DNA from: Mucisphaera calidilacus
Lineage (GTDB): Bacteria > Planctomycetota > Phycisphaerae > Phycisphaerales > Phycisphaeraceae
Direction of reading: 5' to 3'
DNA: 32,000 bases
NCBI RefSeq assembly: GCF_007748075.1
Contig: NZ_CP036280.1
Span: 2,100,001 to 2,132,000 of the forward strand
In this document: positions 3,044-16,503 of the stretch, piece after piece
Layout of the letters: each line of letters opens with the position of its first letter
Position numbering within the stretch: the first letter of the stretch is position 1
Position numbers and translations under genes: made by a program
Notes under the pieces: model-generated
Told to the model about the DNA's origin: nothing
What the model saw: only the letters and a program-made list of their open reading frames with translations
The model's database searches: none

Positions 3044-3237
3044 AGTGCCGGGCCGATCAGGATTGCGTTAATCGGATTTATTGGTCTCGTTCGTGCCTGC
3101 CTCTATATATGATTGACCGGTCTTGATCGATCAGGCTCTGGAGTGACATGCTTGCGGCGACAACACAAGCCGAATGGATCCCAAGCGTGACACCCGGCGG
3201 TGCCTTTTTTACAGGTTTCCTTGCTGGGAGTTGACTG

Positions 3238-6200
3238 ATGTCTGCAGCTTCGCGTGCTTACAAGCGTCTTCGTTCGCTTTATCAGATGACGCTTCGTCGG
3301 ATGCAGTCGGCTCCGCGTGGTGGGGTTGAGGCTGCTCGGCCGGTTCTCCTGGACCGTCTGGAGGAGCGCGTGCTGCTGAGCGGGACGGCTTCGCTGAGCG
3401 GACTGGTTTATTCGGATCTCGATGGCGACGGCAGTCGGGATGCGGATGAGTCGGCCGTGGCTCAGTCGCTGGTGTACCTCGACCTGGACCGGAGTGGGTC
3501 GCTGGAGTGGAGCGATCAGAACGGGAACTTCCGCTGGGATGAGGGGGAGGGTGACCGCTGGACGATTGGCGATGCGCAGGGGCGTTATCACTTTGATGAT
3601 CTAGCCGCTGACGTGTATGCGGTACGACTGTTCAAGCCCGACAACCTTGTGCTGACCGAGCCTGCGGTGGACGAGGTGCTGATCAGCGACTCGTTCGAGG
3701 ATGGCGTGATCGACAGTAGTATCTGGGTGGGCAACGGGAACCAGCCGACGATCTACACGCTCGGTGAACCGGGCCCGACGGGCGAGACCGTGCTGCGTTT
3801 CCCGGCGACCTCGCAGGTGCTCGAGACTCTGCCGATGGACCTGAGCGCGGCGTCGTCGCTTCGGGTTACCTACTGGTGGATGCAGGGCGGCCTGGAGGAT
3901 GATCCGGAATTCGGTGATGACATCTGGCTTGAGTACCTCGACGCGGACGGCGAGTTCGTGCAGTTGTACCGCCATTACGGCTACACGTCAGAGACCGATG
4001 ACTTGCGGCAGAACATCGTCGAGATCGATGGCGACCTGCTGCACGACGGTTTCGTGCTGCGGTTCCATAATCGCGCCGTGTCTTATGGGGTCGTCGAGAC
4101 CGATGACTGGTTCATTGACGATATTCGCGTCTCGATTCCGGGTGAGCAGTCGAGTCTTGTGACACTTGAGGAGGGTGGATCGGCAGAGGGGGTGAATCTC
4201 GGGATTTCACGTCGGATTGCGCCCGGTTCGCCGTATCTGCTGCCTTCGGGTGATACGGGCCGTGCGTCTGATGACGGCATCACGATGAACAACAACGGCA
4301 CGCAGGCGGAGCGGATGGCTTTCCAACTCGATCACGTGGCGAAGGGCGAGACGGTACATCTGGTTGCGGACAACGGTGTTGACCCCGAGTTGATCCTTGC
4401 GACGCCTGTCGTGACCACAGACGGGACGTTCTCGTTCTGGACCGACGGGCGTACCGCGTTGCCCGACGGGACGTATTCGATCCGGGCACGGGTGCTCTCG
4501 TCGTTCGGGACGTGGGAATCGGTGGAGAGCGTTCATCCGCTGGTGGTGGACAGCGAAGCGCCCCGAGTGACGGTGGACGAAGTGTCGGCTGACACGGCGT
4601 CCTTCAGGTTGTCGGGCACGGTGAGTGAGGCGGGCACGCTGGTCGAGGTGGCGCTCGCTGACAGGACGTACACGCCGACTGTTGCCCCTGATCTGACCTG
4701 GGAGATCGCGGCCTACATATTCCTGGAGAACGGTCGTTATGACGTGATGGCGACTGCGACCGATCGTGCGGGCAATGTCGGCAGCGACACGACGACGGAT
4801 GAGTTGGAGATTGTCGATCCGTCCGGTTCGATCTCGGGGACGGTCTGGAAGGATCTTAACGACAATGGTGTTGTGGATGAGGGCGAGTCGGGGTTGGAGG
4901 GTGTTCGGGTCTACCTGAACGAGGATGACGACCTGACGCTTGACTGGACCGATCAGAACGCGAATGGTCTTTGGGACTCGGGGGAGGGGGAGCGATGGAT
5001 CACGACGGATGCTGAGGGTTTCTATCGGTTTGACAGGTTGGTCATTGGACCCCATCAGGTATTGATAGATGCGCCTGCGGGTTTTGTTCAGAGCAATCCG
5101 ATCCCGCATGCCGACTGGTCGTCGACCTATCAGTCGGCCAGCAGCACGGTGGGCAAGATTGTTGACGTAGGGCCGCTGGACTCCATTTTCTTCATGGCGG
5201 GCAGCGGTAGCATCGGCCAATACAACTACGAAACCGGCGATTATTTCGCTTCGGTACTTGTCGGCGGCGCGGTGACGCTACACGACTTCGACGCGGATCA
5301 AGCCGGCTCACTGCTCTGGATCACAATGCCTTCGTCGAGCACCGACGGGTCTTTGCTCCGGTCGTATGAGTTAGGTAGCGGCGCGATGCAGGAGTTTGCT
5401 CTGCCTGTGGAGGCGGGTGAGGTCAGCGAGATCGCTGTGGGCTCGGACGGGATGGTTTACTTCGCCGGGAAGCCGGCTCAGTCGTCGGCCGTGGGAGGTT
5501 TCTACCGTTTTGATCCGGCCACGAGCTTTGCGACGCGGCTTTTTGATTTATCGTCCGGCGCTGATCTGACGCGGAGCCCGGAGGGTGGCGTGGTGCTGAT
5601 CGCGGACCACCACACCGACTCAACGTCGCTGCATCGGTTTGATGTGGGGACGGGGCAGGTGACGGGCAGCACCAGCGTGTGGTCGCTGGGATCGGGCACG
5701 GTGCGGTATGAGGTAGGTCCGGAAGGCGAACTGTTCACGACGCGCCAGAATCAGGTCACGCGTGTTTACGACGCGGGGCTCAACGAGATCCAGGTTTTCT
5801 CGAGTACGCCGCTGAGCTTCATCGATCCGGCCCGGCCGGTTCTGTATCGGGGCTCGGGCAGTTCGCGCCTGCAGGTACTGGATACGGTCAGCTGGCAAAC
5901 GCACATGAGTCAATGGCTGCCTGCGTCGGTCAATGACATCCCCTATGCGGCGATCACTGGTGACGGGTCGAAGCTCTTCTACAGTCGCGGCAGCCTTGTT
6001 TACATTATGGAGAACGGCACGGGCGAGGTGCGGCCGCTGAGTCTGTCTTTGGGAGAATCACTGACCGACCACGACTTCGCGTTGGCTCATGTCCTGCTGC
6101 GTGAGCCCATTGATCTAGGGTGGAGTTCGGACACGGGGTCGTCGCAGCAGGACAACATCACGCGCTACAACAACGCCGACGATGATCACCGGCTTCAGTT

Positions 6201-9200
6201 CATCGTGGATCATCTTCAGGTCGTCGGTGCGGTTCAACTCGTGGCATCGGATGGTGTGAACGAAGACATTCTGCTCGATACCACGATTGAACCTGCTGAG
6301 AACAACGGCACGATCACCACCACGGGGGACGTCGTTCTGCCTGATGGCACGTACGACTTGCGTCTGAGCGTCCTTCGTGATGCGGAGACCTGGTTCAGTG
6401 GCATGGTGGCGGCGACGGTGACCATCGACGCGACGCCGTTGGTGGTGACGATCGACGCGGTCGAGACCGACAGACTGGATACGGTCATCACGGGCACGGT
6501 TGACGGGGATGCGCACTGGGTGTCGGTTTCCTTTAACGGCAGGACGTATCAGGCGACCGTTACTGGTGACGGGACCTGGTCGGCGGAGATTTCGGTGGAG
6601 GGGTATACGCCGGGTGTTTATGACATCGAGGCGGAGGCTGTCGACGTTGCGGGCAACACGAGTACGGACACCACGACCGGGGAGTTGACGATACTTAACG
6701 GGACCAACACGCTGACCGGTTCGGTGTGGCATGATCTCGACGGCAGCAAGGATGAGGTGGACGGCGAGCCGCGGATGGCGAACGTGCGTGTCTACCTCGA
6801 CAGCAACAGGAACGATGTGCTCGACTGGCTCGATGGCGACGACGACGGGTTGTGGGACGCGGGCGAGGGGGAGCGTTGGGTTCTGACGGGTGCGGATGGC
6901 AGCTACAGCTTTGATCAGTTGCCGGAGGGGCGTTACGAGGTCAAGGCCACGACGCCTGTCGGCTATACGGCGACGCTGACGCCGGACACGGACTGGGGCG
7001 CAGAACACGTGTTCTCGGATCGCTTGCCAGAGAAGATACTGTTCGCACCGGACGGCGTGACGCTTTACACGATCCAGAGCAACAACGAGATTCGCCGATT
7101 CGACATGGCGACCATGACTCAGTTGAGTTCTTATGTGCTGCCGGCCGCATCGATCGATAGTTTCGATCTTTCGCCGGATGGGACGTTCCTGATCGCGAGC
7201 ACACAGAACGGAGCGGCCAATCATCAGGGCATCCTGTGGATGGTTAGCACGCAGACGCATGTGGTGATAGGTGAGTACACCTTCGATCTGGGCGGCTTCG
7301 AGACGGGGGTCTCGGACGTCCACATCGATAGCGATGGGCATGTCTACGTCGCGCCGTATACTGCGATTGGTCTTGGGTTCGGGACCGGACCATGGCTGCT
7401 GCGCAAGCTGGACTTGCAGACCGGGGCGTTTGAAGTCATCGGCAACTCAGATGTTGCGAATGTGACATTTGGTCAGACCCACGATCCCGCGCAGATCCTG
7501 ATGCAGGGCGCAATCAACAACAGGTCTGACCTTGCACTCTACGACACGGTTACTGACCGCTTCGTGCTTACATCACCCAACGGCCTGTCGAACATCTCAC
7601 AGGTTTCGATCTCGCCTGACGGGCAGACGCTTGCTTATCGCGTCGGCTCAGCGATCAGGCTGGTCGATCGGTCGTTCAACGTGCTTACCACAATCAACAC
7701 GCAGTATGTGGGGGTCTTCGACCCGAACCTGCCTTACTATTACACGCAAGGTTCGGGCAACGAATCTCTTCATGTGCTTGATGCTTCGACCGGCGCGACG
7801 GTCGACAGCTACCGCGCGCCTTACTCCTTCTCTTACTCACCCACCTCTATGACCATCTCCGCCGACGGCACGCGGATCGCCTACAGTGCCCAGTCTAGTT
7901 ATAATATCTACTACATTTATGCCCTCAACAATGGCAAGGCGTTTGAGGGTGTGGTTGTCGAGGGTGGGGGGACGACCGCGGGGCCGGATTTCGGTTTTCA
8001 ACGAACTGTGAAACCTGCCGCCCCCGATCTGCGTGGTGAGACGGATACGGGTACCTCGACGACGGACAACCTGACGCGTCGGAACAACGGCTCGGCAGAT
8101 GAGACGCTCATGTTTGCCCTGAATGGGCTGAATGCTGCCGACGAGGTTACGCTGTTGATCTTCCCGGATGAGGGCGTGCCATATGCCATCGGGTCGGGTG
8201 TCGCGTTGGGGGCGGGTGCATTTATCAGCACAGACGGGCAGACGGTGCTGGAGGACGGCACGCACCCGATCGGCGTGCAGATTACTGACCGCTACAACAC
8301 CTTCACTTATTCTTCTCCGACGACACATGTGCTGTCGGTGACGATCGACACGATTGCGCCGGTGGTTGATGTTGATCCGCTGGTGACCGATCAGATTCGG
8401 CCCGCGTTGTCGGGCACGTTGGATGATACGTTTGCCAGTGTCGAGATTACCCTCGGTGAACTATCGGTGGGTGCGGGCAAACCGACGTCAACCACCTGGC
8501 AGGTCGGCGCGGGCGTGTTTGGCCCGCTGGCTGTTGGGTTGCATGACGTTGTGGCGCGTGCGACCGACCGTGCGGGGAACGTGGGCATCGACACGACCGT
8601 CCGTGAATTGGAAGTCATCACGCCTACGGCGGAACTGGCCGGCACGGTCTGGCACGATCTGAACAACGACGGGGTGTTCGACGCGGACGAGCCGACGCTG
8701 ACCGGCGTGCGCGTCTATCTGGACGACAACAACAACAGTGCGCTCGACTGGTTCGACTACGACCTGGACGGTTCGTGGGACGCGAACGAGGGCGAACGCT
8801 GGCAGCTCACGGATGACGAGGGCAACTATCGGTTCGCGGGGCTAATCTCGGGCGGGTACACGGTTCGTCAGCAGGTGATGGATCCGTATGTTCTGACCGC
8901 GCCGTTCGGGGACACCGTGCTTTTCGAGGAGACGTTTGAGACCACGAGTTTTGATCCGTCGCGGTGGGCTGTGGTTTCCCACGCGACCATTGATGACGTG
9001 GGCATCGATGAGCCATCCGAGCCTTACGCGCTGCGTCTCAATGGCGATCCGAGTTACTCGGACTATGTCGACACCGTGCCAATCGATCTCAGTGGGTTGG
9101 CGAACGTCTCTCTGGAGTTTGCCTGGCAGCAGACGGGCGGCGGTCATGAACCGGGCTACAACGACAATCTGGTCGTTTCTTATCTCAACAGGTACAACGG

Positions 9201-12200
9201 CCGCTATACGCTCAGGACACTTTCTGGCAGCACTACCGGGGCGGGCACGCCCTTTGGCGTCAGCCAGTCGTACCTGCCCTCGTCGGCGTGTCACGATGAC
9301 TTCTCGCTGCGTTTTTATGCCTCGGACACGCAAAGGCCAGCGGGTGACTGGTTTGTCGACGACGTCCGGCTGCTCGTGCCCGGAGATGGCGGGCATCGTG
9401 TCGAGCTCGACGTGGGCGAGCGTCTTGAAGACCTTGACTTCGGCAACTTCGCGGAGAGTGTCGCGGAGGGCACGGTCTGGATGGATCTCAACAAGAACGG
9501 CGTGCGTCAGGCCAGCGACCCGTTGCTGGAGAACATCCGTGTCTATCTCGATCTGGATGGCAACGGTGTCTTTGATGACACGGAGCCGTCCGTGTTGACC
9601 GATGATTCAGGCCAGTACCGCTTTGACGAGATCATTACGGGTGCGTACAGCCTGCGTGTTGACCTGCCTTCAGAGTACCTGACGGTGATCAGCCCTGAGG
9701 CAGGGGTCTACACGTTCACGGTTTATTCGGATGAGTATGTCGGCGGGCTGGATTTCGGTCTGCAGCGGACTAGCCCGTTTGGTGTGGTCAGCAGTGACCC
9801 GGCGCTCGGCGAGTTCACAGGCCCCGACACGGATTACTACTTCGTGACGTTCAACGGCGAGGTTAACTCGAGTACGGTGCAGGCCTCGGACTTCCTGGTC
9901 GATGGCCAGCATCCGGCGGGTGTCTACGTTAGTGCGCCCGACACGGTACGTATCACGCTGCCGGGCACGCTGAGCAGCGGGCTGCACAACGTCATCCTCC
10001 CCGAGAACAGGATCGAGGATGTCTGGGGTGTGCCGAACACGATCTTCACGGGGTTCTTCGCGGTGGACGCGACCGGTCCACGGATCATCAGTTCTTCGAT
10101 CGTGGAGGGTCAGGAACTGCCCGTGGGTGATGTCACGCTGATGCTTGCCTTCGACGAGTCGATGGGTGCGTCGAGTGTGGAGAACCTCGACGCCTACGCG
10201 TTGCGGGACAGCGGGGACAACCTGTTCGTGCCGGATCATGCTGTGTATTACGAGGCGACCAAGACGGCGGTCGTGCGCTGGCGGGGTCTTGAAGAGGAGT
10301 TCTACAGGCTGGCGATCGCGGACAGCCTGACCGATGTCGTCGGCAATCGCCTGGACGGCGAGGCGGCCTGGCCCCTGCCCGTTGAGGGCACGGGCGACGG
10401 TGTGCCGGGCGGCGCGTTTACGGTTCGCTTCACGACCGATGTGCAGACCAGCCAGAAGGTCGAGGACTGGCGGCTTCTCGAGCCGGTGGGCTCACACGCG
10501 GCGCGCGCCGAGCAGCGTGCACTGCTTGGCCGTACAGGTGATGTCGACCGCTACACGCTGGACGTGGCGTCGGGCAATGTATTCTCGGTGCTCGCGCGTA
10601 CCGAGGATGTGGTGCGTTACTCTCTGAGGATTGTTGACCCCTCAGGGGACGTGCTGCGGCTTCATGCGGGTGAGGTGGCGGGTTCTGCGCTTGCGACGCC
10701 GGTGCGTGCCACGGAGACGGGCACGTACACGATCGAACTGGAATCGATCTGGAGTGCGGGCCGCGTCGATCTTGAGATCTTGCTGAACGGCGTGTTCGAG
10801 GCTGAGGAGCATGACGATTCGACGAACCACACCGCCGACGATGCACAGGACCTGAGTACGGTTTTCACCCCCCTGCCGGGGACAGACGTTCAGCAGGTCA
10901 AGGTGCTTGGAGCGGGCGAGGATCACGTCGACGGCCACGACGTGTCTCGGACGCAGCGCATCTCGGGAACCGCGTATTATCCGAACAACCTGTACTTCAC
11001 CTTCGATGATCTGCCTCAGACCGTGGGCGATGGTGTGTTGACGTTTGTTGGCTGGGGTGACTTCGATCAGAGTAATGAGTACGCCATAGTTACGGTCGAC
11101 AACGTCATCTTCTCTGCTCTGGTCTTCGATCTTCCGGGTTATCACTCCAACCCTGTGACGGACACGATCAGTGTGACGCAGGATGATCTGGATGCGCTGC
11201 TGGCGGACGGGTCTGTGACGCTTTCGGCTGGCTTCAGCACCAGTGTTTCCAACTACGGCGGCAGCTACCTTGAGGTAACGCTGTCGTATCCTTCGATCCC
11301 GCCGACGGCGGACTGGTACCGGGTATCGCTGGAGGATGGAGAGTCGCTCAACCTGCTCCTGGAGAGTGATCAGGTCCAGTCGGGTGCGGCCATCCGGGTC
11401 TATGACACTGACATGGTCGAACAGCAGGCGACGTTGACGGCGGGTGGCAAGCGTATCGAGCTTAAGGGCTTCGCGGATACGACCACAGACGGCGGAGCCG
11501 ATGACTACTTCGTCGAGGTGACGGGTGTGGTCGGGGCATACGAGTTGCTGGTGACGCGAAATGCGGCGATCGCGTTGAACGGTTCAGTCTCGGTGTCGGC
11601 GGACCATGCGGAGGCCGGCGTTCGCTACGTCGGTGGCGTGATGGGCCCCGAGCCTGAGGAGACCACCAAGTCGCCGGTGACTCCGCCGACCGGAGCTTCG
11701 GGCGATGAACCGCTGCTCGTCGGGTTTGATAATCTGGCGCTGGGCCAGTTGGATGCGGAAGTCTATCTGTCGAGCCTGGGCCTGAGTGTTCTTGACGTCT
11801 ATCCGATGGTTGGTTCGGCGTTGGTGCAGGCGCCGCGGGTGTCGCTGCTCGGCGAGGCGGATGGCGTGTCGTGGGTCGACGATCCGGCGATCCGGTACGT
11901 CGAACCGGATGGCGCGTTGCGTCTGCATCAGACCTTAGCCAGTGATCCGTACTTTGGTTCGCTCTGGGGTCTGCACAACACGGGTCAGTCGTTTGGCACC
12001 CATGACGCGGACATCGATGCGCCGGAGGCGTGGTCGGTCTTCACCGGGACCTCGGATGTGGTTGTTGCGATCATCGACAGCGGCATTGACTACAACCACC
12101 CCGACCTCGCGGACAACATGTGGCGTAACCCGGGTGAGATCCCCGGCAACGGCATCGACGACGACAACAATGGCTATGTCGATGATGTATACGGTATCGA

Positions 12201-14193
12201 CGCCGCGAACAACGACAGCGACCCGATGGATGACAACAGCCACGGCACACACGTGGCGGGGACGATCGGTGCCGTCGGCAACAACGGCATCGGGATCACG
12301 GGTGTGAACTGGGATGTCGAGATGATGGCGCTCAAGTTCCTTGACCGTTATGGCGACGGGAACAACTCAGACGTCATCGAGTTGATCGACTACATGGTCG
12401 ACATGAAGCTCAATCATGGCATCAACATCGTGGCGTCCAACAACTCGTGGGGCGGGTCGCTCTACTCCTCCGCCTTGATGGACGCGATCGAGGCCAGCAA
12501 CGACGCGGGCATTTTGTTTGTGGCCTCGTCGGGCAACGATCGTGTCAACACAGACATCAGCGGCCGGTATCCGCATGGCTATAACCTTCCTGGCATTCTT
12601 GCGGTCGGCTCGACCGATCGCAATGACCGCCTGTCGTCGTTCTCGAATTATGGCGTGCAGACGGTTGATATCGCGGCGCCCGGGACCGACATCTACAGCA
12701 CCGTGCCCGGCGGTTCGTATGGGTACAAGAGCGGCACGTCGATGGCTTCGCCGCACGTGACGGGCGCAGCGGCCATGCTGATGGCCGCTAACCCTAACGC
12801 GAGCATCTTCGAGATCAAGCAGCTCCTGATGGATACGGCGGATTCGGTTTCCGAACTCACGGGCAAGATCGCCAATGCGGGTCGGTTGAATCTCAACACG
12901 GCGATCCAGACCATCGGCCTGCACACCGAGGAACTGGATACTTACACCCTCTACATGGACCCGGGCGACACGATTCGTGTTTCCACCCTGACACCCGGCG
13001 ACGAGGTGGGGCCGCTGGTCAACCACCTGGACCCGATGATCGAGATCCGTGACGCAGCGAACGAATTGCTTGCCTTCGACGACAACTCGGCGGCCGACGG
13101 TCGGAATGCGGAACTGGTCTATCGTGCTGAGGGTGCCGGGACCATGACCGTTGTGGTGAAGGCTGCCGAGGGTACCGAGGGGATCTATCTGCTCGACCTG
13201 TCGGTTGAGCGTGCGGCGGAGGTCGTCAACACGGAGCTGTTCTACAACAACTCATCGTTTGACCAGAACGACCCTGAGCTGAACGAGGCTGACCTCGAGG
13301 CGATCGCGGAGGACAAGTATCCGCTGAAGCCGGGATCTGAGGCCCGCTTTACCAACTACACGAGTTACGACCGCGGCATCAACGGTCTGATGATCGACAT
13401 CAGCAACCTCAAGTCGCTGCCGACGCTGAGCGACTTCGTCTTCATGACCGGCCGGTCGCAGGACGCTTCTGAATGGACTGAGGCGCCGTTGCCGACGGCG
13501 ATGCTCGTATCGGAGGGTATCGGGCGTTACGACAGCGACCGCATCAGTTTCTCGTGGGAGGACGGTGCGATCACGAACACGTGGCTGCGGGTCCGAGCGT
13601 TGTCGGATGACAACGGTGGTTCGCTGGGGCTCGGCGAGGACGCGGTCTTCTACTACGGCAACGTCATCGGCGAGAGCGGGAACCGAGCTGACACGGTGGT
13701 CGATATCTTCGACATGCTCGCGCCGCTGCGGCGTATCGAATCCGGTGGGCGTGGCTCCACCCCCAACACCATGCCCGTCGAAGTCACGCACCCGTTCGAC
13801 TACAACCGGGATCAGGTCCTCGACGAGAAGGATATGGCGATCGCGCGTGGCCACGGCAGCACGATCGCCAACGCGTTGCCGTTGATGCGGGCACCGGACT
13901 CGATTGGCAGCACGATCAGCGCCGCTCCGCCGGTGAAACTCAACACGCGTTACTACTACCGGTCGTTCGTCTACCCGCTGGCTCAGCGGCCGGATACCGG
14001 CGGTGTCGCGGTGCCCCGCTACACGCTCTTGGTGACGCGTGACGGCATCAGGATGGTGAGTGAGGATCCGGCGGCGAAGAAGGGGGATCCCGGGCGTGTG
14101 TCGGCTACTCCGTCGCTGCCTCAGGCTCAGCGTGTTGCCTATCAGCAGCAGCCGATGTCGGCACTCAGGCAGCAGCAGTTGGTACAGCAGTAG
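3238..14193 (+). CDS. Giant (3,651 aa) modular extracellular protein: SdrD-B-like, Ig-like, beta-propeller-like, jelly-roll and PPC-like domains plus an embedded I9-prodomain/S8 subtilisin
   Basis: Single uninterrupted 10,956-nt ORF with a GGGAG sequence 8 nt upstream of the ATG. Recognisable domain motifs run throughout (see sub-features). Every overlapping ORF is Arg/Pro/Ser-rich and looks like a high-GC artefact. Confidence 0.9.
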   Translation: MSAASRAYKRLRSLYQMTLRRMQSAPRGGVEAARPVLLDRLEERVLLSGTASLSGLVYSDLDGDGSRDADESAVAQSLVYLDLDRSGSLEWSDQNGNFRWDEGEGDRWTIGDAQGRYHFDDLAADVYAVRLFKPDNLVLTEPAVDEVLISDSFEDGVIDSSIWVGNGNQPTIYTLGEPGPTGETVLRFPATSQVLETLPMDLSAASSLRVTYWWMQGGLEDDPEFGDDIWLEYLDADGEFVQLYRHYGYTSETDDLRQNIVEIDGDLLHDGFVLRFHNRAVSYGVVETDDWFIDDIRVSIPGEQSSLVTLEEGGSAEGVNLGISRRIAPGSPYLLPSGDTGRASDDGITMNNNGTQAERMAFQLDHVAKGETVHLVADNGVDPELILATPVVTTDGTFSFWTDGRTALPDGTYSIRARVLSSFGTWESVESVHPLVVDSEAPRVTVDEVSADTASFRLSGTVSEAGTLVEVALADRTYTPTVAPDLTWEIAAYIFLENGRYDVMATATDRAGNVGSDTTTDELEIVDPSGSISGTVWKDLNDNGVVDEGESGLEGVRVYLNEDDDLTLDWTDQNANGLWDSGEGERWITTDAEGFYRFDRLVIGPHQVLIDAPAGFVQSNPIPHADWSSTYQSASSTVGKIVDVGPLDSIFFMAGSGSIGQYNYETGDYFASVLVGGAVTLHDFDADQAGSLLWITMPSSSTDGSLLRSYELGSGAMQEFALPVEAGEVSEIAVGSDGMVYFAGKPAQSSAVGGFYRFDPATSFATRLFDLSSGADLTRSPEGGVVLIADHHTDSTSLHRFDVGTGQVTGSTSVWSLGSGTVRYEVGPEGELFTTRQNQVTRVYDAGLNEIQVFSSTPLSFIDPARPVLYRGSGSSRLQVLDTVSWQTHMSQWLPASVNDIPYAAITGDGSKLFYSRGSLVYIMENGTGEVRPLSLSLGESLTDHDFALAHVLLREPIDLGWSSDTGSSQQDNITRYNNADDDHRLQFIVDHLQVVGAVQLVASDGVNEDILLDTTIEPAENNGTITTTGDVVLPDGTYDLRLSVLRDAETWFSGMVAATVTIDATPLVVTIDAVETDRLDTVITGTVDGDAHWVSVSFNGRTYQATVTGDGTWSAEISVEGYTPGVYDIEAEAVDVAGNTSTDTTTGELTILNGTNTLTGSVWHDLDGSKDEVDGEPRMANVRVYLDSNRNDVLDWLDGDDDGLWDAGEGERWVLTGADGSYSFDQLPEGRYEVKATTPVGYTATLTPDTDWGAEHVFSDRLPEKILFAPDGVTLYTIQSNNEIRRFDMATMTQLSSYVLPAASIDSFDLSPDGTFLIASTQNGAANHQGILWMVSTQTHVVIGEYTFDLGGFETGVSDVHIDSDGHVYVAPYTAIGLGFGTGPWLLRKLDLQTGAFEVIGNSDVANVTFGQTHDPAQILMQGAINNRSDLALYDTVTDRFVLTSPNGLSNISQVSISPDGQTLAYRVGSAIRLVDRSFNVLTTINTQYVGVFDPNLPYYYTQGSGNESLHVLDASTGATVDSYRAPYSFSYSPTSMTISADGTRIAYSAQSSYNIYYIYALNNGKAFEGVVVEGGGTTAGPDFGFQRTVKPAAPDLRGETDTGTSTTDNLTRRNNGSADETLMFALNGLNAADEVTLLIFPDEGVPYAIGSGVALGAGAFISTDGQTVLEDGTHPIGVQITDRYNTFTYSSPTTHVLSVTIDTIAPVVDVDPLVTDQIRPALSGTLDDTFASVEITLGELSVGAGKPTSTTWQVGAGVFGPLAVGLHDVVARATDRAGNVGIDTTVRELEVITPTAELAGTVWHDLNNDGVFDADEPTLTGVRVYLDDNNNSALDWFDYDLDGSWDANEGERWQLTDDEGNYRFAGLISGGYTVRQQVMDPYVLTAPFGDTVLFEETFETTSFDPSRWAVVSHATIDDVGIDEPSEPYALRLNGDPSYSDYVDTVPIDLSGLANVSLEFAWQQTGGGHEPGYNDNLVVSYLNRYNGRYTLRTLSGSTTGAGTPFGVSQSYLPSSACHDDFSLRFYASDTQRPAGDWFVDDVRLLVPGDGGHRVELDVGERLEDLDFGNFAESVAEGTVWMDLNKNGVRQASDPLLENIRVYLDLDGNGVFDDTEPSVLTDDSGQYRFDEIITGAYSLRVDLPSEYLTVISPEAGVYTFTVYSDEYVGGLDFGLQRTSPFGVVSSDPALGEFTGPDTDYYFVTFNGEVNSSTVQASDFLVDGQHPAGVYVSAPDTVRITLPGTLSSGLHNVILPENRIEDVWGVPNTIFTGFFAVDATGPRIISSSIVEGQELPVGDVTLMLAFDESMGASSVENLDAYALRDSGDNLFVPDHAVYYEATKTAVVRWRGLEEEFYRLAIADSLTDVVGNRLDGEAAWPLPVEGTGDGVPGGAFTVRFTTDVQTSQKVEDWRLLEPVGSHAARAEQRALLGRTGDVDRYTLDVASGNVFSVLARTEDVVRYSLRIVDPSGDVLRLHAGEVAGSALATPVRATETGTYTIELESIWSAGRVDLEILLNGVFEAEEHDDSTNHTADDAQDLSTVFTPLPGTDVQQVKVLGAGEDHVDGHDVSRTQRISGTAYYPNNLYFTFDDLPQTVGDGVLTFVGWGDFDQSNEYAIVTVDNVIFSALVFDLPGYHSNPVTDTISVTQDDLDALLADGSVTLSAGFSTSVSNYGGSYLEVTLSYPSIPPTADWYRVSLEDGESLNLLLESDQVQSGAAIRVYDTDMVEQQATLTAGGKRIELKGFADTTTDGGADDYFVEVTGVVGAYELLVTRNAAIALNGSVSVSADHAEAGVRYVGGVMGPEPEETTKSPVTPPTGASGDEPLLVGFDNLALGQLDAEVYLSSLGLSVLDVYPMVGSALVQAPRVSLLGEADGVSWVDDPAIRYVEPDGALRLHQTLASDPYFGSLWGLHNTGQSFGTHDADIDAPEAWSVFTGTSDVVVAIIDSGIDYNHPDLADNMWRNPGEIPGNGIDDDNNGYVDDVYGIDAANNDSDPMDDNSHGTHVAGTIGAVGNNGIGITGVNWDVEMMALKFLDRYGDGNNSDVIELIDYMVDMKLNHGINIVASNNSWGGSLYSSALMDAIEASNDAGILFVASSGNDRVNTDISGRYPHGYNLPGILAVGSTDRNDRLSSFSNYGVQTVDIAAPGTDIYSTVPGGSYGYKSGTSMASPHVTGAAAMLMAANPNASIFEIKQLLMDTADSVSELTGKIANAGRLNLNTAIQTIGLHTEELDTYTLYMDPGDTIRVSTLTPGDEVGPLVNHLDPMIEIRDAANELLAFDDNSAADGRNAELVYRAEGAGTMTVVVKAAEGTEGIYLLDLSVERAAEVVNTELFYNNSSFDQNDPELNEADLEAIAEDKYPLKPGSEARFTNYTSYDRGINGLMIDISNLKSLPTLSDFVFMTGRSQDASEWTEAPLPTAMLVSEGIGRYDSDRISFSWEDGAITNTWLRVRALSDDNGGSLGLGEDAVFYYGNVIGESGNRADTVVDIFDMLAPLRRIESGGRGSTPNTMPVEVTHPFDYNRDQVLDEKDMAIARGHGSTIANALPLMRAPDSIGSTISAAPPVKLNTRYYYRSFVYPLAQRPDTGGVAVPRYTLLVTRDGIRMVSEDPAAKKGDPGRVSATPSLPQAQRVAYQQQPMSALRQQQLVQQ
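3398..3663 (+). repeat. SdrD-B-like (Cna-B-type) domain, copy 1, with inserted W-D-x-G-E-G-D/E-R-W loop
   Basis: GLVYSDLDGDGSRDADE..VYLDLDRSGSLEWSDQNGNFRWDEGEGDRWTIGDAQGRYHFDDLAADVYAVRL. Confidence 0.6.
3670..4140 (+). repeat. Jelly-roll (MAM/LamG-like) domain, copy 1
   Basis: LISDSFEDGVIDSSIW...LRVTYWWMQGG...DIWLEYLDADGEFVQL...DDWFIDDIRVSIPG. A paralogous copy lies at 8905-9380 (LFEETFETTSFDPSRW...LEFAWQQTGGG...NLVVSYLN...GDWFVDDVRLLVPG). Confidence 0.5.
4831..5100 (+). repeat. SdrD-B-like domain, copy 2 (with insert)
   Basis: ISGTVWKDLNDNGVVDEGESGLEGVRVYLNEDDDLTLDWTDQNANGLWDSGEGERWITTDAEGFYRFDRLVIGPHQV. Confidence 0.65.
5150..6020 (+). other. Beta-propeller-like region 1 (YncE/lactonase-like blades)
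   Basis: Repeated strand-turn patterns of roughly 40-50 aa such as VGSDGMVYFAG, RSPEGGVVLIAD, VGPEGELFTT and TGDGSKLFYS. The assignment is by pattern only. Confidence 0.45.
6711..6985 (+). repeat. SdrD-B-like domain, copy 3 (with insert)
   Basis: LTGSVWHDLDGSKDEVDGEPRMANVRVYLDSNRNDVLDWLDGDDDGLWDAGEGERWVLTGADGSYSFDQLPEGRYEV. Confidence 0.65.
7027..7940 (+). other. Beta-propeller-like region 2
   Basis: FAPDGVTLYT, LSPDGTFLIAS, IDSDGHVYVA, ISPDGQTLAYR and ISADGTRIAYS recur at blade-like spacing. It occupies the same position in the module as region 1. Confidence 0.5.
8632..8905 (+). repeat. SdrD-B-like domain, copy 4 (with insert)
   Basis: LAGTVWHDLNNDGVFDADEPTLTGVRVYLDDNNNSALDWFDYDLDGSWDANEGERWQLTDDEGNYRFAGLISGGYTV. 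Confidence 0.65.
8905..9380 (+). repeat. Jelly-roll (MAM/LamG-like) domain, copy 2
   Basis: Paralogue of 3670-4140, with the same order of conserved W/F/D positions and ending GDWFVDDVRLLVPG. Confidence 0.5.
9463..9697 (+). repeat. SdrD-B-like domain, copy 5 (canonical, without the insert)
   Basis: EGTVWMDLNKNGVRQASDPLLENIRVYLDLDGNGVFDDTEPSVLTDDSGQYRFDEIITGAYSLRV. Confidence 0.65.
11707..11934 (+). other. Peptidase inhibitor I9-like subtilisin prodomain, internal (about residues 2824-2899)
   Basis: EPLLVGFDNLALGQLDAEVYLSSLGLSVLDVYPMVGSALVQAPRVSLLGEADGVSWVDDPAIRYVEPDGALRLHQT. The ending ..V.YVEPD..... directly before the catalytic domain is the usual I9 arrangement. Confidence 0.55.
11935..12918 (+). 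other. Peptidase S8 (subtilisin) catalytic domain
   Basis: Ordered Asp-His-Ser triad motifs: VVVAIIDSGID (Asp2947, nt 12076-12078), DDNSHGTHVAGT (His3002, nt 12241-12243) and SGTSMASPHVTGAAA (Ser3168, nt 12739-12741), plus the oxyanion-region SNNSWGG. Confidence 0.9.
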
Positions 14194-14290
14194 CCTTGTG
14201 CGGTCGTCCTGATCTGGCGGGTATCGAATCGCGGGGCGTGCGGGTGTAGCATGTTCTTTTCGCACGTCCGCCCGATACCCGAGCCACCGC

Positions 14291-15283
14291 ATGAACGATC
14301 CAGTTGCCGACGGCCTGATTCACGCTTTCGTGATTGATGACGCGGGCACGATTAATCAACTCGCCTCGGACGCGCTGGATGACTGGCGGGGCGAACAGGG
14401 CACGCTCTGGGCGCACTTTGACCGCTCGAAGCCGGCAACCGGCCGGTGGCTTCGTGACCGCAGCGGCCTGGACGGGATGGTGCGTGAGGCGTTGTTAGCC
14501 GAGGACACGCGGCCGCGAGTCACCATCGTGGGTGAGGGTGCGGTGGTCATCCTGCGTGGCGTCAATCTGAATCCCGGTGCCCAGCCGGACGACATGATCT
14601 CGCTGCGGATGTGGGTGGACCGCCACCGGCTGCTCAGCATGCGTTTTCCCAAGCTGGCGGCTGTCGGCGATGTGCGTGAGCGTCTGCTGGCCGGCGACGA
14701 CCTGCTGACATCGGGTGCTCTGCTTGCCGGGCTGGCCATTGCGATGACGGACCGGATGGCTCAGGTTATGGCCAATCTTCGAGAGCTGCTCGACGATTTC
14801 GAGGAGCAGACGGTCGAGGGGTTCCGGCCGTCGCTGCTGGAGGCGTTGGGGCCGGTTCGGCGTCAGGTGATTGTGCTGCGGCGTTACCTCTCGCCACAGC
14901 GTGACGCGTTGATTCAGCTCACCGAGAGCACGCTGACCTGGTTGACGCAGGAAGACCGCGCCCGTCTCCGGGAGGCTCTTGACCGGACGACGCGGTTTGT
15001 GGAGGACCTCGACTCGCTGCGGGATCGCTTTGTGTACGTGCAGGAGGAGATGATGGCCTGGCAGTCTCAGCAGCTGAATACGACGATGTACCTGCTGTCG
15101 ATCGTCTCGACGGTCTTTCTGCCGCTGAGTTTTCTGACGGGCGTGCTCGGCATGAACGTGGCGGGCCTGCCGGGTACCGAGGTGTGGTGGGCCTTCGGCG
15201 GCGTGGTGATCGTGATGATCGCGATGGCCCTGGCGGAAGTGGGTGTTCTGTGGTGGTGGGGTCTGATCGGCAGGCGGGGGTAA
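14291..15283 (+). CDS. zntB: CorA-family divalent metal transporter, ZntB-like
   Basis: 330 aa with two C-terminal TM helices flanking the signature FLTGVLGMNVAGLPG (GMN). The N-terminal domain resembles enterobacterial ZntB as recalled from memory (RPRVT..GEG.V.ILRG.N; RRQVIVLRRYLSPQRDA). Confidence 0.8.
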   Translation: MNDPVADGLIHAFVIDDAGTINQLASDALDDWRGEQGTLWAHFDRSKPATGRWLRDRSGLDGMVREALLAEDTRPRVTIVGEGAVVILRGVNLNPGAQPDDMISLRMWVDRHRLLSMRFPKLAAVGDVRERLLAGDDLLTSGALLAGLAIAMTDRMAQVMANLRELLDDFEEQTVEGFRPSLLEALGPVRRQVIVLRRYLSPQRDALIQLTESTLTWLTQEDRARLREALDRTTRFVEDLDSLRDRFVYVQEEMMAWQSQQLNTTMYLLSIVSTVFLPLSFLTGVLGMNVAGLPGTEVWWAFGGVVIVMIAMALAEVGVLWWWGLIGRRG

Positions 15284-15306
15284 ATCGCTCGTGGCATGAG
15301 GAGCCA

Positions 15307-16503
15307 TCATCCTGACGAGAAGAGTGTCAGGAATCCCTTGATGACCAGGGCGTTCATGAGGTCGATAAAGAAGGCTCCGACGAGGGGGATGATGAGAAAG
15401 GCCTTGGTCGACGGCCCGTACTTGTCGGTCAGTGCGCTCATGTTGGCCATGGCGACGGGTGTCGCGCCCAGCCCCAAGCCCACGAATCCGCCTGTGATCA
15501 CGGCGGCGTCGTAGTCTTTGCCCATCAGTCGGAAGACGAAGAGGACGGCGACCAGTGTGATCACGAGCATCTGGGCGCAGACCACTAGCAGGAGTACTCC
15601 GGCGGCACTCGCGAGCGTGGAGAGTTGCAGACTCATCAGGCTCATGGCCAAAAAGAGTTGGAGAGAGACTTCGCCGGTAACGTCGATCACGGGCCTGCTG
15701 AGTCGGCGATCCAGGAGGTCACAGGTGTTGACGATGACGATTCCCACAACCATCGCTGTCAGGAATCCGGGGAGCTGGACGCCGTGTGAAAAGAGGAGTC
15801 GGTTCACCATGTCCCCGGCGGATATGCAGACAGCCAGGGCGAGCAGCGTTTCGATGAAGTCGCTGACGTGCATCGGCTGGGAGGGGGCGACACGATCCCC
15901 GTCGGTCGATTCAAGATTGTTCTGCTCGTTCGATTGCAGTCGGTGCTTGTTGATGAGATACCCGGCGATCGGGCCGCCGATCAAGCCGCCCGTAATGAGG
16001 CCGAAGGTCGCGCAGGCGACGCCAAACTCGGCGGCGCCTTGCAGCCCTGCACGGGTCGCCTCTCCGCCCCAGGCGATGGCCGTGCCGTGGCCGCCGGCGA
16101 AGGAGATCGATCCTCCCATCAGACCGAAACCGGGGTGCCCCCCCACCATCATGACTGCGAGAACCCCGGTCGCGTTCTGCACGATCAGGAAGATGCCCGC
16201 GAGCACAACGAGCACCACCAGAGCGGTGCCGCCGGCGCGCAAAGACGACAGCCGTGCGTTGAGGCCGATGGTGCTAAAGAAGGTGAGGAGAAAAAGGTCG
16301 CGCAGCGTCAAGTCGAAGGTCAGTGCGATGCCTCCCACCTCGCCGATGAGCAGCACAAGGATGCTGCAGATGATACCGCCGGTGACGGCCTCGGGGATAT
16401 TGTGACGGCGCAGCAGCGGGACGTGACGGTTGATCCACCCACCGAGGTAGAGGACGAAGACACTGACGATCAGGACGTCGACGCTCCGCATTTCGTAAGC
16501 CAT
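15307..16503 (-). CDS. gltS: Sodium/glutamate symporter
   Basis: 398-aa polytopic membrane protein collinear with E. coli GltS. Shared segments include IPEAVTGG, FFSTIGLNARLSSLRAGG, SFAGGHGTA, ACATFGLITGGLIGGP, MGKDYDAAV, GLGATPVAMANM and FIDLMNALVIK. Confidence 0.9.
   Translation of the reverse strand: MAYEMRSVDVLIVSVFVLYLGGWINRHVPLLRRHNIPEAVTGGIICSILVLLIGEVGGIALTFDLTLRDLFLLTFFSTIGLNARLSSLRAGGTALVVLVVLAGIFLIVQNATGVLAVMMVGGHPGFGLMGGSISFAGGHGTAIAWGGEATRAGLQGAAEFGVACATFGLITGGLIGGPIAGYLINKHRLQSNEQNNLESTDGDRVAPSQPMHVSDFIETLLALAVCISAGDMVNRLLFSHGVQLPGFLTAMVVGIVIVNTCDLLDRRLSRPVIDVTGEVSLQLFLAMSLMSLQLSTLASAAGVLLLVVCAQMLVITLVAVLFVFRLMGKDYDAAVITGGFVGLGLGATPVAMANMSALTDKYGPSTKAFLIIPLVGAFFIDLMNALVIKGFLTLFSSG

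Follow-up and report, generated by a model that had tools for sequence, protein, structure and literature searches.

Prodomain-assisted folding is the textbook route by which S8 subtilases mature, and the prodomain, of about 80 residues, is commonly regarded as a leader to be discarded. In fervidolysin (1r6v; PF22148) and in subtilisin E/BPN' the prosegment is a beta-alpha-beta-beta-alpha-beta module that abuts the catalytic domain. Here we analyse a gene of the planctomycete Mucisphaera calidilacus Pan265 (Phycisphaerae), contained in a 32,000-nucleotide (nt) stretch of its chromosome (NZ_CP036280.1, positions 2,100,001 to 2,132,000; hereafter the window, in whose numbering all nt positions are given). 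The gene encodes a protein of 3,651 amino acids (aa), the giant protein, which has a homologous propeptide of the same module type abutting an S8 catalytic domain; this copy, however, is too divergent for the curated models, lies about 2,800 residues from the N-terminus, and is entered from a linker and not from a signal peptide. Such a layout suggests that ordinary autocleavage would split the giant protein into two large chains.

S8 modules away from the N-terminus are found in other systems. Clostridioides difficile CspBA, to which the giant protein has a weak NCBIfam match, is one example; CspBA, however, is a fusion of two subtilase modules that serves spore germination, and its interdomain cut is made by another protease. 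The in-line subtilisins of polymorphic toxins are likewise not N-terminal (PMC3482391), but the variable toxin tips and immunity genes of those systems are absent here. The nearest functional precedent is Bacillus subtilis WprA: its processing leaves two stable proteins in the wall, CWBP23 and the protease CWBP52 (PMC8767453), so that one gene gives two products through prodomain processing and the N-terminal part survives as a separately functioning wall protein. WprA differs in its size (96 kDa), its classical signal peptide and its small N-terminal product, where the giant protein would yield a multi-module fibre of about 300 kDa, and the two proteins are compared here only as S8 proteases.

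The solved structure closest to the S8 catalytic domain is that of deseasin MCP-01, a collagenolytic protease of Pseudoalteromonas sp. SM9913 (3vv3_A; phmmer E=3.1e-110; Foldseek 56% identity, TMt 0.91), which shares with the giant protein a Ca-binding-type insertion (NPGEIPGNGIDDDNNGYVDD) and the presence of accessory beta-domains after the protease. Full-length relatives of the MCP-01 clade (Shewanella, Gallaecimonas; about 835 aa) carry the prodomain just behind the N-terminus and a P-domain and PKD domain after the protease. In the giant protein, by contrast, about 2,825 residues precede the prodomain, and a PPC domain below the Pfam threshold and a domain without a family follow the protease; no P-domain was found and PKD_4 reached 17.3 bits against a cutoff of 27, so that the deseasin layout is not reproduced.

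The embedded S8 catalytic domain

Peptidase_S8 (PF00082) matches aa 2939-3203 of the giant protein with E=4.1e-59 (200.7 bits against a Pfam cutoff of 21.8). The Asp, His and Ser motifs stand in the order expected of the S8 family (IIDSG at aa 2945-2949, nt 12070-12084; HGTHVAG at aa 3002-3008, nt 12241-12261; GTSMASPHV at aa 3166-3174, nt 12733-12759), and in a pairwise alignment D32, H64, N155 and S221 of subtilisin BPN' fall on D2947, H3002, N3100 and S3168. N3100, within SSGND, is an invariant column of a 44-sequence alignment. Because the triad and the oxyanion Asn map onto BPN', the sequence describes a catalytically complete and apparently functional protease. Two other candidates were rejected: a pseudoprotease, since the triad is intact, and an autotransporter subtilase, since Pfam and NCBIfam scans gave no beta-barrel match.

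A first-pass annotation, made by a model from the letters alone, had described intact triad motifs in a subtilisin unit buried about 2,800 residues deep in an intact 3,651-aa gene. All of this holds: the motifs are where it had put them, the prodomain begins at aa 2826 and the S8 domain at aa 2901, and the frame, on a closed genome, is uninterrupted by any stop codon or frameshift.

The propeptide

The same annotation had placed an I9-like prodomain at 11707-11934, ending in IRYVEPDGALRLHQT, which indeed lies at aa 2885-2899 (nt 11890-11934). Because Pfam scans of the segment were blank, we left the I9 label aside and turned to a profile built from relatives. In the databases the catalytic domain is closest (50-60% identity) to ordinary subtilases of 450-860 aa, many of them annotated with PF22148 and PF00082. 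BLAST and MAFFT alignments with these proteins extend without a break from the catalytic domain upstream as far as giant residue ~2822-2826; the corresponding residues ~30-90 of the hits are their own N-terminal propeptide. We collected 27 aligned propeptide segments, 26 from relatives and the giant's own (which has no match itself); 21 match PF22148, two I9 and one Tk-SP_N-pro. A profile of these segments finds the prosegments of subtilisin E (1scj_B, 1.3e-5), BPN' (1spb_P, 2.3e-5) and fervidolysin (residues 32-99), and hhalign gives it 95% probability against the BPN' propeptide. When the giant's own segment was excluded, the resulting leave-one-out profile of 26 sequences scored aa 2826-2896 at 21.8 bits over profile positions 5-74, its only match in the 3,651 aa; the maximum in 2,000 shuffles was 6.2.

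The structure prediction is consistent with this assignment. An AlphaFold2 model of aa 2790-3330 has a mean predicted local distance difference test score (pLDDT) of 78.5, rising above 90 over the catalytic core. Within it aa 2826-2895 are modelled, mostly at pLDDT 77-93, as beta-alpha-beta-beta-(short helix)-beta; the elements assigned by DSSP (in model numbering, strands 37-41, 61-66, 71-75 and 96-101, helix 48-57 and a short helix 90-92) have the open-sandwich arrangement. With Foldseek, the whole model aligns over 409-445 columns to unprocessed pro-subtilisins, compared with 300-323 to mature enzymes, and TMt to the unprocessed forms is 0.83-0.85 for 3whi, 0.74-0.78 for 2z2z and 2e1p, and 0.70 for SUB1 with its prodomain. 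The N-terminal ~35 residues of the mature part (aa 2899-2932, nt 11932-12033; TLASDPYFGSLWGLHNTGQSFGTHDADIDAPEAW) are strongly conserved, and the MCP-01 crystal shows them ordered; in the pro-form model their pLDDT is 34-49.

On sequence comparison, then, aa 2826-2896 is a true homologue of the canonical N-terminal subtilase prodomains, directly abutting the catalytic domain, and is best described as an I9-like propeptide of the PF22148 (fervidolysin) type. Of the first-pass proposal, the homology and the I9-like fold are borne out, the segment modelling as beta-alpha-beta-beta-(alpha)-beta; its span contracts to 11713-11925, its group is PF22148, and it matches no curated model. The giant's prodomain follows the consensus of its closest architectural homologues (for example P0131 and P0162), ...INGA.IE....SW..D..I.YxEPDY. 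Since this consensus of its own sub-lineage is kept, we attribute its low profile score to lineage divergence and not to decay, and a decaying relic prodomain was ruled out.

Predicted self-splitting of the giant protein

Our proposal for maturation is modelled on the established pathway of subtilisin E/BPN', Tk-subtilisin and fervidolysin. Working in cis, the propeptide would be the intramolecular chaperone of the protease and would place its C-terminal tail in the active-site cleft; self-cleavage at the pro/mature junction, near H2897-A2901, would follow. For the site of this junction we rely on the family junction motif and on the alignment of A2901 with residue 4 of chain 3vv3_A in the MCP-01 crystal. 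The cut would yield an adhesin-like fibre of about 2,900 aa ending in the propeptide, and a fragment of about 750 aa comprising the S8, PPC-like and C-terminal domains. Because ~2,825 residues precede the propeptide, an ordinary autocleavage would here have an unusual outcome. The cleaved propeptide would be expected to stay bound as a tight inhibitor, so that the two chains are latched non-covalently and the enzyme is latent; degradation or displacement of the propeptide would then free the active protease, or leave it held by the C-terminal domain, in the extracellular matrix. We consider self-splitting into a fibre and a latched latent protease the best explanation of the data, with a probability of roughly 0.68.

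Several observations weigh against this explanation. Pfam gave no family for aa 2744-2938 even at E<=10, nor for the isolated 78-aa segment, and neither curated propeptide model (I9, PF05922; PF22148) matches aa 2826-2896. The second helix of the prodomain is weakly predicted, as a helix of 3 residues only at pLDDT 52. The mature N-terminus (model residues 110-143) is of low confidence, which may reflect conformations that differ before and after cleavage. A classical signal peptide was looked for in the giant protein and none was found. Moreover, a prodomain is not obligatory for every embedded S8 copy: the profile detects none for internal copies in P0126 (catalytic domain at 2731), P0197 (catalytic domains at 2085 and 3813) and P0223, nor for the second copies of P0191, P0244 and P0209. 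These internal copies either have very divergent prodomains or fold without one.

Self-cleavage and a tethered latent protease were the two options named at the outset by the first-pass annotation, and they were the right ones to consider. The giant's junction, EPDGALRLHQT/LASDPYF (the slash marks the junction), departs from the family consensus EPDY-x6/xPNDP, and its prodomain is among the lowest-scoring internal ones (12.8-21.8 bits, against a typical 30-55). Both features could be expected if the folded prodomain inhibits the enzyme while the junction escapes self-cleavage; the protease would then remain covalently joined to the fibre at its end, and any activation would come from a second protease or from a signal, for example Ca2+ or the binding of substrate. 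Activation in trans is known for prodomain-inhibited subtilases: SUB1 is activated by plasmepsin X (PMC10128010). We nevertheless judge tethering unlikely in the giant protein, given the intact triad, the intact oxyanion residue and a model compatible with docking of the prodomain. It also goes against precedent: in all characterised subtilases that have a prodomain of this type, the first cut is known to be made in cis by the enzyme itself.

Alternatively, the S8 domain might mainly cut elsewhere in the giant protein, in linkers between modules or before the C-terminal domain, and thereby free modules or cargo. Subtilisin has been counted among the in-built processing proteases of Sec- or PVC-exported polymorphic toxins (Zhang et al. 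2012; PMC3482391), linkers rich in Pro, Glu and Thr are present, and in many relatives two or three cassettes are spaced along a single chain. The C-terminal domain of the giant protein, however, is conserved and not polymorphic, is sometimes found in tandem, and is a beta-sandwich without an enzyme or toxin match; the next gene encodes CorA, and no immunity-like gene follows. On the same grounds (conserved C-terminal domain, no toxin tip, CorA and not an immunity gene downstream) a polymorphic toxin system was ruled out. Release of modules as the main role of the protease seems to us even less likely than tethering, and it would be compatible with autoprocessing at the junction, not an alternative to it.

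We also considered that embedding is only apparent, and that an internal start at ATG nt 11641 (M2802) gives an independent pro-protease of ~850 aa. This ATG, the only internal one in frame, coincides with the start of the linker and has GGTGG a few bases before it. Against this, scanning 11000-12100 revealed no promoter-like or terminator-like site, and the M2802 product would open with the Pro/Glu/Thr-rich linker and without a signal peptide. In relatives, too, the 30 aa before 68 internal cassettes are linkers and not signal peptides, and there is little to recommend separate expression. Slightest of all is the chance that an assembly or annotation artefact has joined an adhesin gene to a protease gene: the gene lies on a single closed replicon of 3,486,541 bp with flat G+C (GC) content across the adhesin/protease junction, its frame is free of stops and frameshifts, the same embedded layout recurs in many independent assemblies from several phyla, and the order of beta-domain, linker, prodomain and S8 is conserved in relatives. 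The species paper likewise gives one replicon and no plasmids (PMC8882080). With the genome closed at 3.49 Mb, GC flat, no internal promoter or terminator, no signal peptide on the M2802 product and recurrence in relatives, it is very unlikely that two genes were fused in assembly or that a second gene is hidden here, and we infer that the giant gene encodes one continuous exported protein of matrix or surface type.

Embedded cassettes in relatives

We surveyed the occurrence of embedded cassettes in two ways. A scan of species-representative genomes gave 79 loci encoding relatives, and in most of them the catalytic domain begins 105-160 aa into the open reading frame (ORF). These include a large group of Planctomycetota giants (~3,170-3,800+ aa) with an N-terminal cassette. 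Members from Planctomycetota/PVC bacteria (L020, L026, L037, L039, L044, L049 and L076; 3,170-3,230 aa) are likewise giant multi-domain chains and belong to the same S8 clade at 45-48% identity; in them autoprocessing would remove only a propeptide of ~100 aa, whereas the giant protein has the reverse order, with most of the chain on the "propeptide" side of the cut. An internal cassette is present in 7 of the 79 loci (L018, L003, L007, L006, L010, L011 and L033). In L018, from Verrucomicrobiota, the prodomain (2245-2316) and catalytic domain (2318-2638) lie within a chain of 4,545 aa, and L003 (Okeania sp., 8693-17773) has three complete cassettes in one 3,027-aa chain. The prodomain is clear in six of the seven, ending 1-10 residues before each catalytic domain; in L033 it is marginal (5.5 bits) and ends ~55 residues upstream.

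The second survey was an exhaustive HMMER search of metagenomic proteins with the last 1,200 aa of the giant protein, from which the best 146 representatives were analysed; since this query favours proteins that share the flanking domains, the counts are biased toward giants and are not unbiased frequencies. These 146 contain 227 S8 domains, of which 109 start at least 300 aa into the chain, 79 at least 1,000 aa and 15 at least 2,000 aa; two among the best 146 lie deeper than the giant's own (P0197 at 3,813 and P0157 at 3,723). The search also found relatives of aa 2405-2899, for which a word-indexed homology search had returned nothing at E<=1e-5, a blank that we therefore attribute to limited sensitivity. 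The closest homologues have in common a super-module of ~650 aa (beta-domain, linker, prodomain, S8 and beta-sandwich). In the giant protein the conserved super-module, counted from the beta-domain through the PPC-like beta-sandwich to the C-terminal domain, makes up the last quarter of the chain. Many relatives have two cassettes, often one N-terminal and one internal, and three pro-S8 cassettes per chain occur in P0122, P0123, P0125, P0127, P0134, P0223 and P0250, as in L003.

A prodomain is detectable in 88 of the 109 internal copies (81%) and in 94 of the 118 N-terminal ones (80%), and internal cassettes keep the junction ...YAEPDY-x6/xPNDPxFxxLWGL. That the prodomain is retained as often internally, together with its junction motif, argues for its still being needed when embedded. 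Over the 30 aa upstream of the 68 internal cassettes, P, E, K and Q are over-represented and hydrophobic residues under-represented, and by composition these entry stretches look like linkers and not like remnants of signal peptides.

Embedding is thus a minority arrangement compared with canonical subtilases, yet recurrent and conserved in the clade. The searchable literature, including a 2008 survey of prokaryotic serine-protease architectures, yielded no description of an embedded or internal subtilase prodomain. The first-pass annotation had called the architecture unusual; this is right with respect to canonical subtilases, but with 7 of 79 loci and 79 of 227 S8 domains at least 1,000 aa deep it is not rare. 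Because the arrangement recurs so widely, its novelty is below that first estimate; the giant protein is not unique, and the class, rather than the single gene, is what merits study.

If self-splitting is correct, the side that is normally discarded would here, and in dozens of related giants, be a multi-module fibre of ~300 kDa, and the same chemistry would become a device for splitting and latching chains. It would account for the post-translational partitioning of very large planctomycetal surface or matrix proteins and for the storage of a latent protease on a fibre; should each cassette autoprocess, one multi-cassette gene would give three or four chains. More tentatively, and as a possibility that we would rather bet against than for, embedded cassettes may be programmed break-points in giant surface or matrix proteins of the LEPR-XLL type, a class widespread in Planctomycetota, Verrucomicrobiota and some other phyla, yielding two latched chains (three or four in multi-cassette proteins) and a reserve, in the matrix, of latent proteases that are tethered to fibres and set free or switched on as needed. 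A cassette with its flanking domains, at ~650 aa, is small enough for in vitro work.

Modules, protein ends and export

The features of the giant protein are collected in Table 1. The module map was drawn only from Pfam and NCBIfam matches, because BLAST of the giant protein against itself for internal repeats gave no off-diagonal high-scoring segment pairs. The whole protein contains a single cysteine, and no hydrophobic segment of transmembrane grade was found in it.

Table 1. Giant gene and protein features, with nt positions in the window
Feature	Position	Strand	Basis or remark
Giant ORF, 3,651 aa	3238..14193	+	QDU71862.1 / WP_145446059.1; annotated only as "S8 family serine peptidase"
LEPR-XLL-like motif (aa 37-51, LLDRLEERVLLSGTA)	3346..3390	+	basic stretch before it; no hydrophobic signal peptide
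Adhesin-like modules, ~2,750 aa	3391..11637	+	five SdrD_B, three Big_13/Ca-tandemer Ig-like, Big_5, PD40-type beta-propeller stretches, modules without family
Final adhesin-like module (aa ~2660-2800)			beta-domain; kept before the cassette in relatives
Flexible Pro/Glu/Thr-rich linker (aa 2801-2825, VMGPEPEETTKSPVTPPTGASGDEP)	11638..11712	+	model pLDDT <50
Subtilase N-propeptide (aa 2826-2896)	11713..11925	+	I9-like fold, PF22148-type, divergent
Predicted autoprocessing junction (aa 2897-2900, HQTL)	11926..11937	+	approximate, from family junction and MCP-01 alignment
S8 catalytic domain, deseasin MCP-01-like (aa 2901-3226)	11938..12915	+	PF00082, 3vv3_A, Foldseek, pLDDT >90
Catalytic Asp D2947	12076..12078	+	BPN' alignment
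Catalytic His H3002	12241..12243	+	BPN' alignment
Oxyanion-hole Asn N3100	12535..12537	+	BPN' alignment; invariant column
Catalytic Ser S3168	12739..12741	+	BPN' alignment
Post-protease beta-sandwich (aa 3234-3325), PPC-like	12937..13212	+	sub-threshold in Pfam; beta-strands in model
Conserved family-less C-terminal domain (aa 3325-3565)	13210..13932	+	beta-sandwich and short helices
C-terminal tail (aa 3566-3651), Gln-rich at end	13933..14190	+	low confidence, pLDDT <50

The N-terminus consists of a basic stretch and LLDRLEERVLLSG, with no hydrophobic h-region, and NCBIfam NF012209 (LEPR-XLL) matches there just below its cutoff (15.5 bits against 17, aa 37-51). The same type of N-terminus is shared by relatives. 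In 13 of 19 giants listed (18 with a deep S8 domain, and P0186) the chain opens with a stretch rich in Arg/Lys, LExRxLL(S/A) comes next at aa ~24-45, and a hydrophobic signal-peptide core is lacking; examples of LExRxLL N-termini are P0126, P0153, P0159, P0128, P0185, P0203 and P0222.

Downstream of the protease, PPC (PF04151) reaches 19.2 bits on the beta-sandwich (cutoff 25.9, E=0.0024). The C-terminal domain that follows has a consensus of ~230 aa, FYNNSxFD...NYTSYxRGINGLMID...FYFGNxIGESGNS...DYNRD, and forms the extreme C-terminus of many giants; it also occurs in small standalone proteins and as a tandem triplicate in P0229. Its model (pLDDT 78.8), a beta-sandwich with short helices, had no match in the PDB at E<=1e-3, and from this model the domain looks like a binding or anchoring module and not a toxin. 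Pan265 cells lie in a dense extracellular matrix (PMC8882080), which would be a plausible home for the giant protein, although this link is speculative.

Gene neighbourhood

The neighbours of the giant gene are housekeeping genes (a sulfotransferase-like gene, CorA, a glutamate symporter and fructose-bisphosphate (FBP) aldolase), and no partner secretion, immunity or chaperone gene was found among them. Elsewhere in the window, a GH16 glycoside hydrolase gene (29217-31121, minus strand) has a weak Dockerin_1 match and a C-terminal PEP-CTERM match close to threshold (20.5 bits against a cutoff of 20.7); adjoining it, 28311-29189 (minus strand) encodes a protein with a type IV pilin-like N-methylation/DUF1559 match. 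A transfer-messenger RNA (tmRNA) gene at 19458-19833 (minus strand; Rfam RF00023, 172.6 bits) adjoins a low-GC patch (17800-19400), in which GC content falls to 0.48 at 18001-19000, against ~0.62 elsewhere, and ORFs 17820-18596 and 18478-18906 (both minus strand) have no Pfam match. The patch is perhaps what is left of an element that had integrated at the tmRNA gene. A tRNA gene at 26835-26908 (plus strand; Rfam RF00005, 58.8 bits) directly follows a hydantoinase/oxoprolinase A/B pair (23216-26829).

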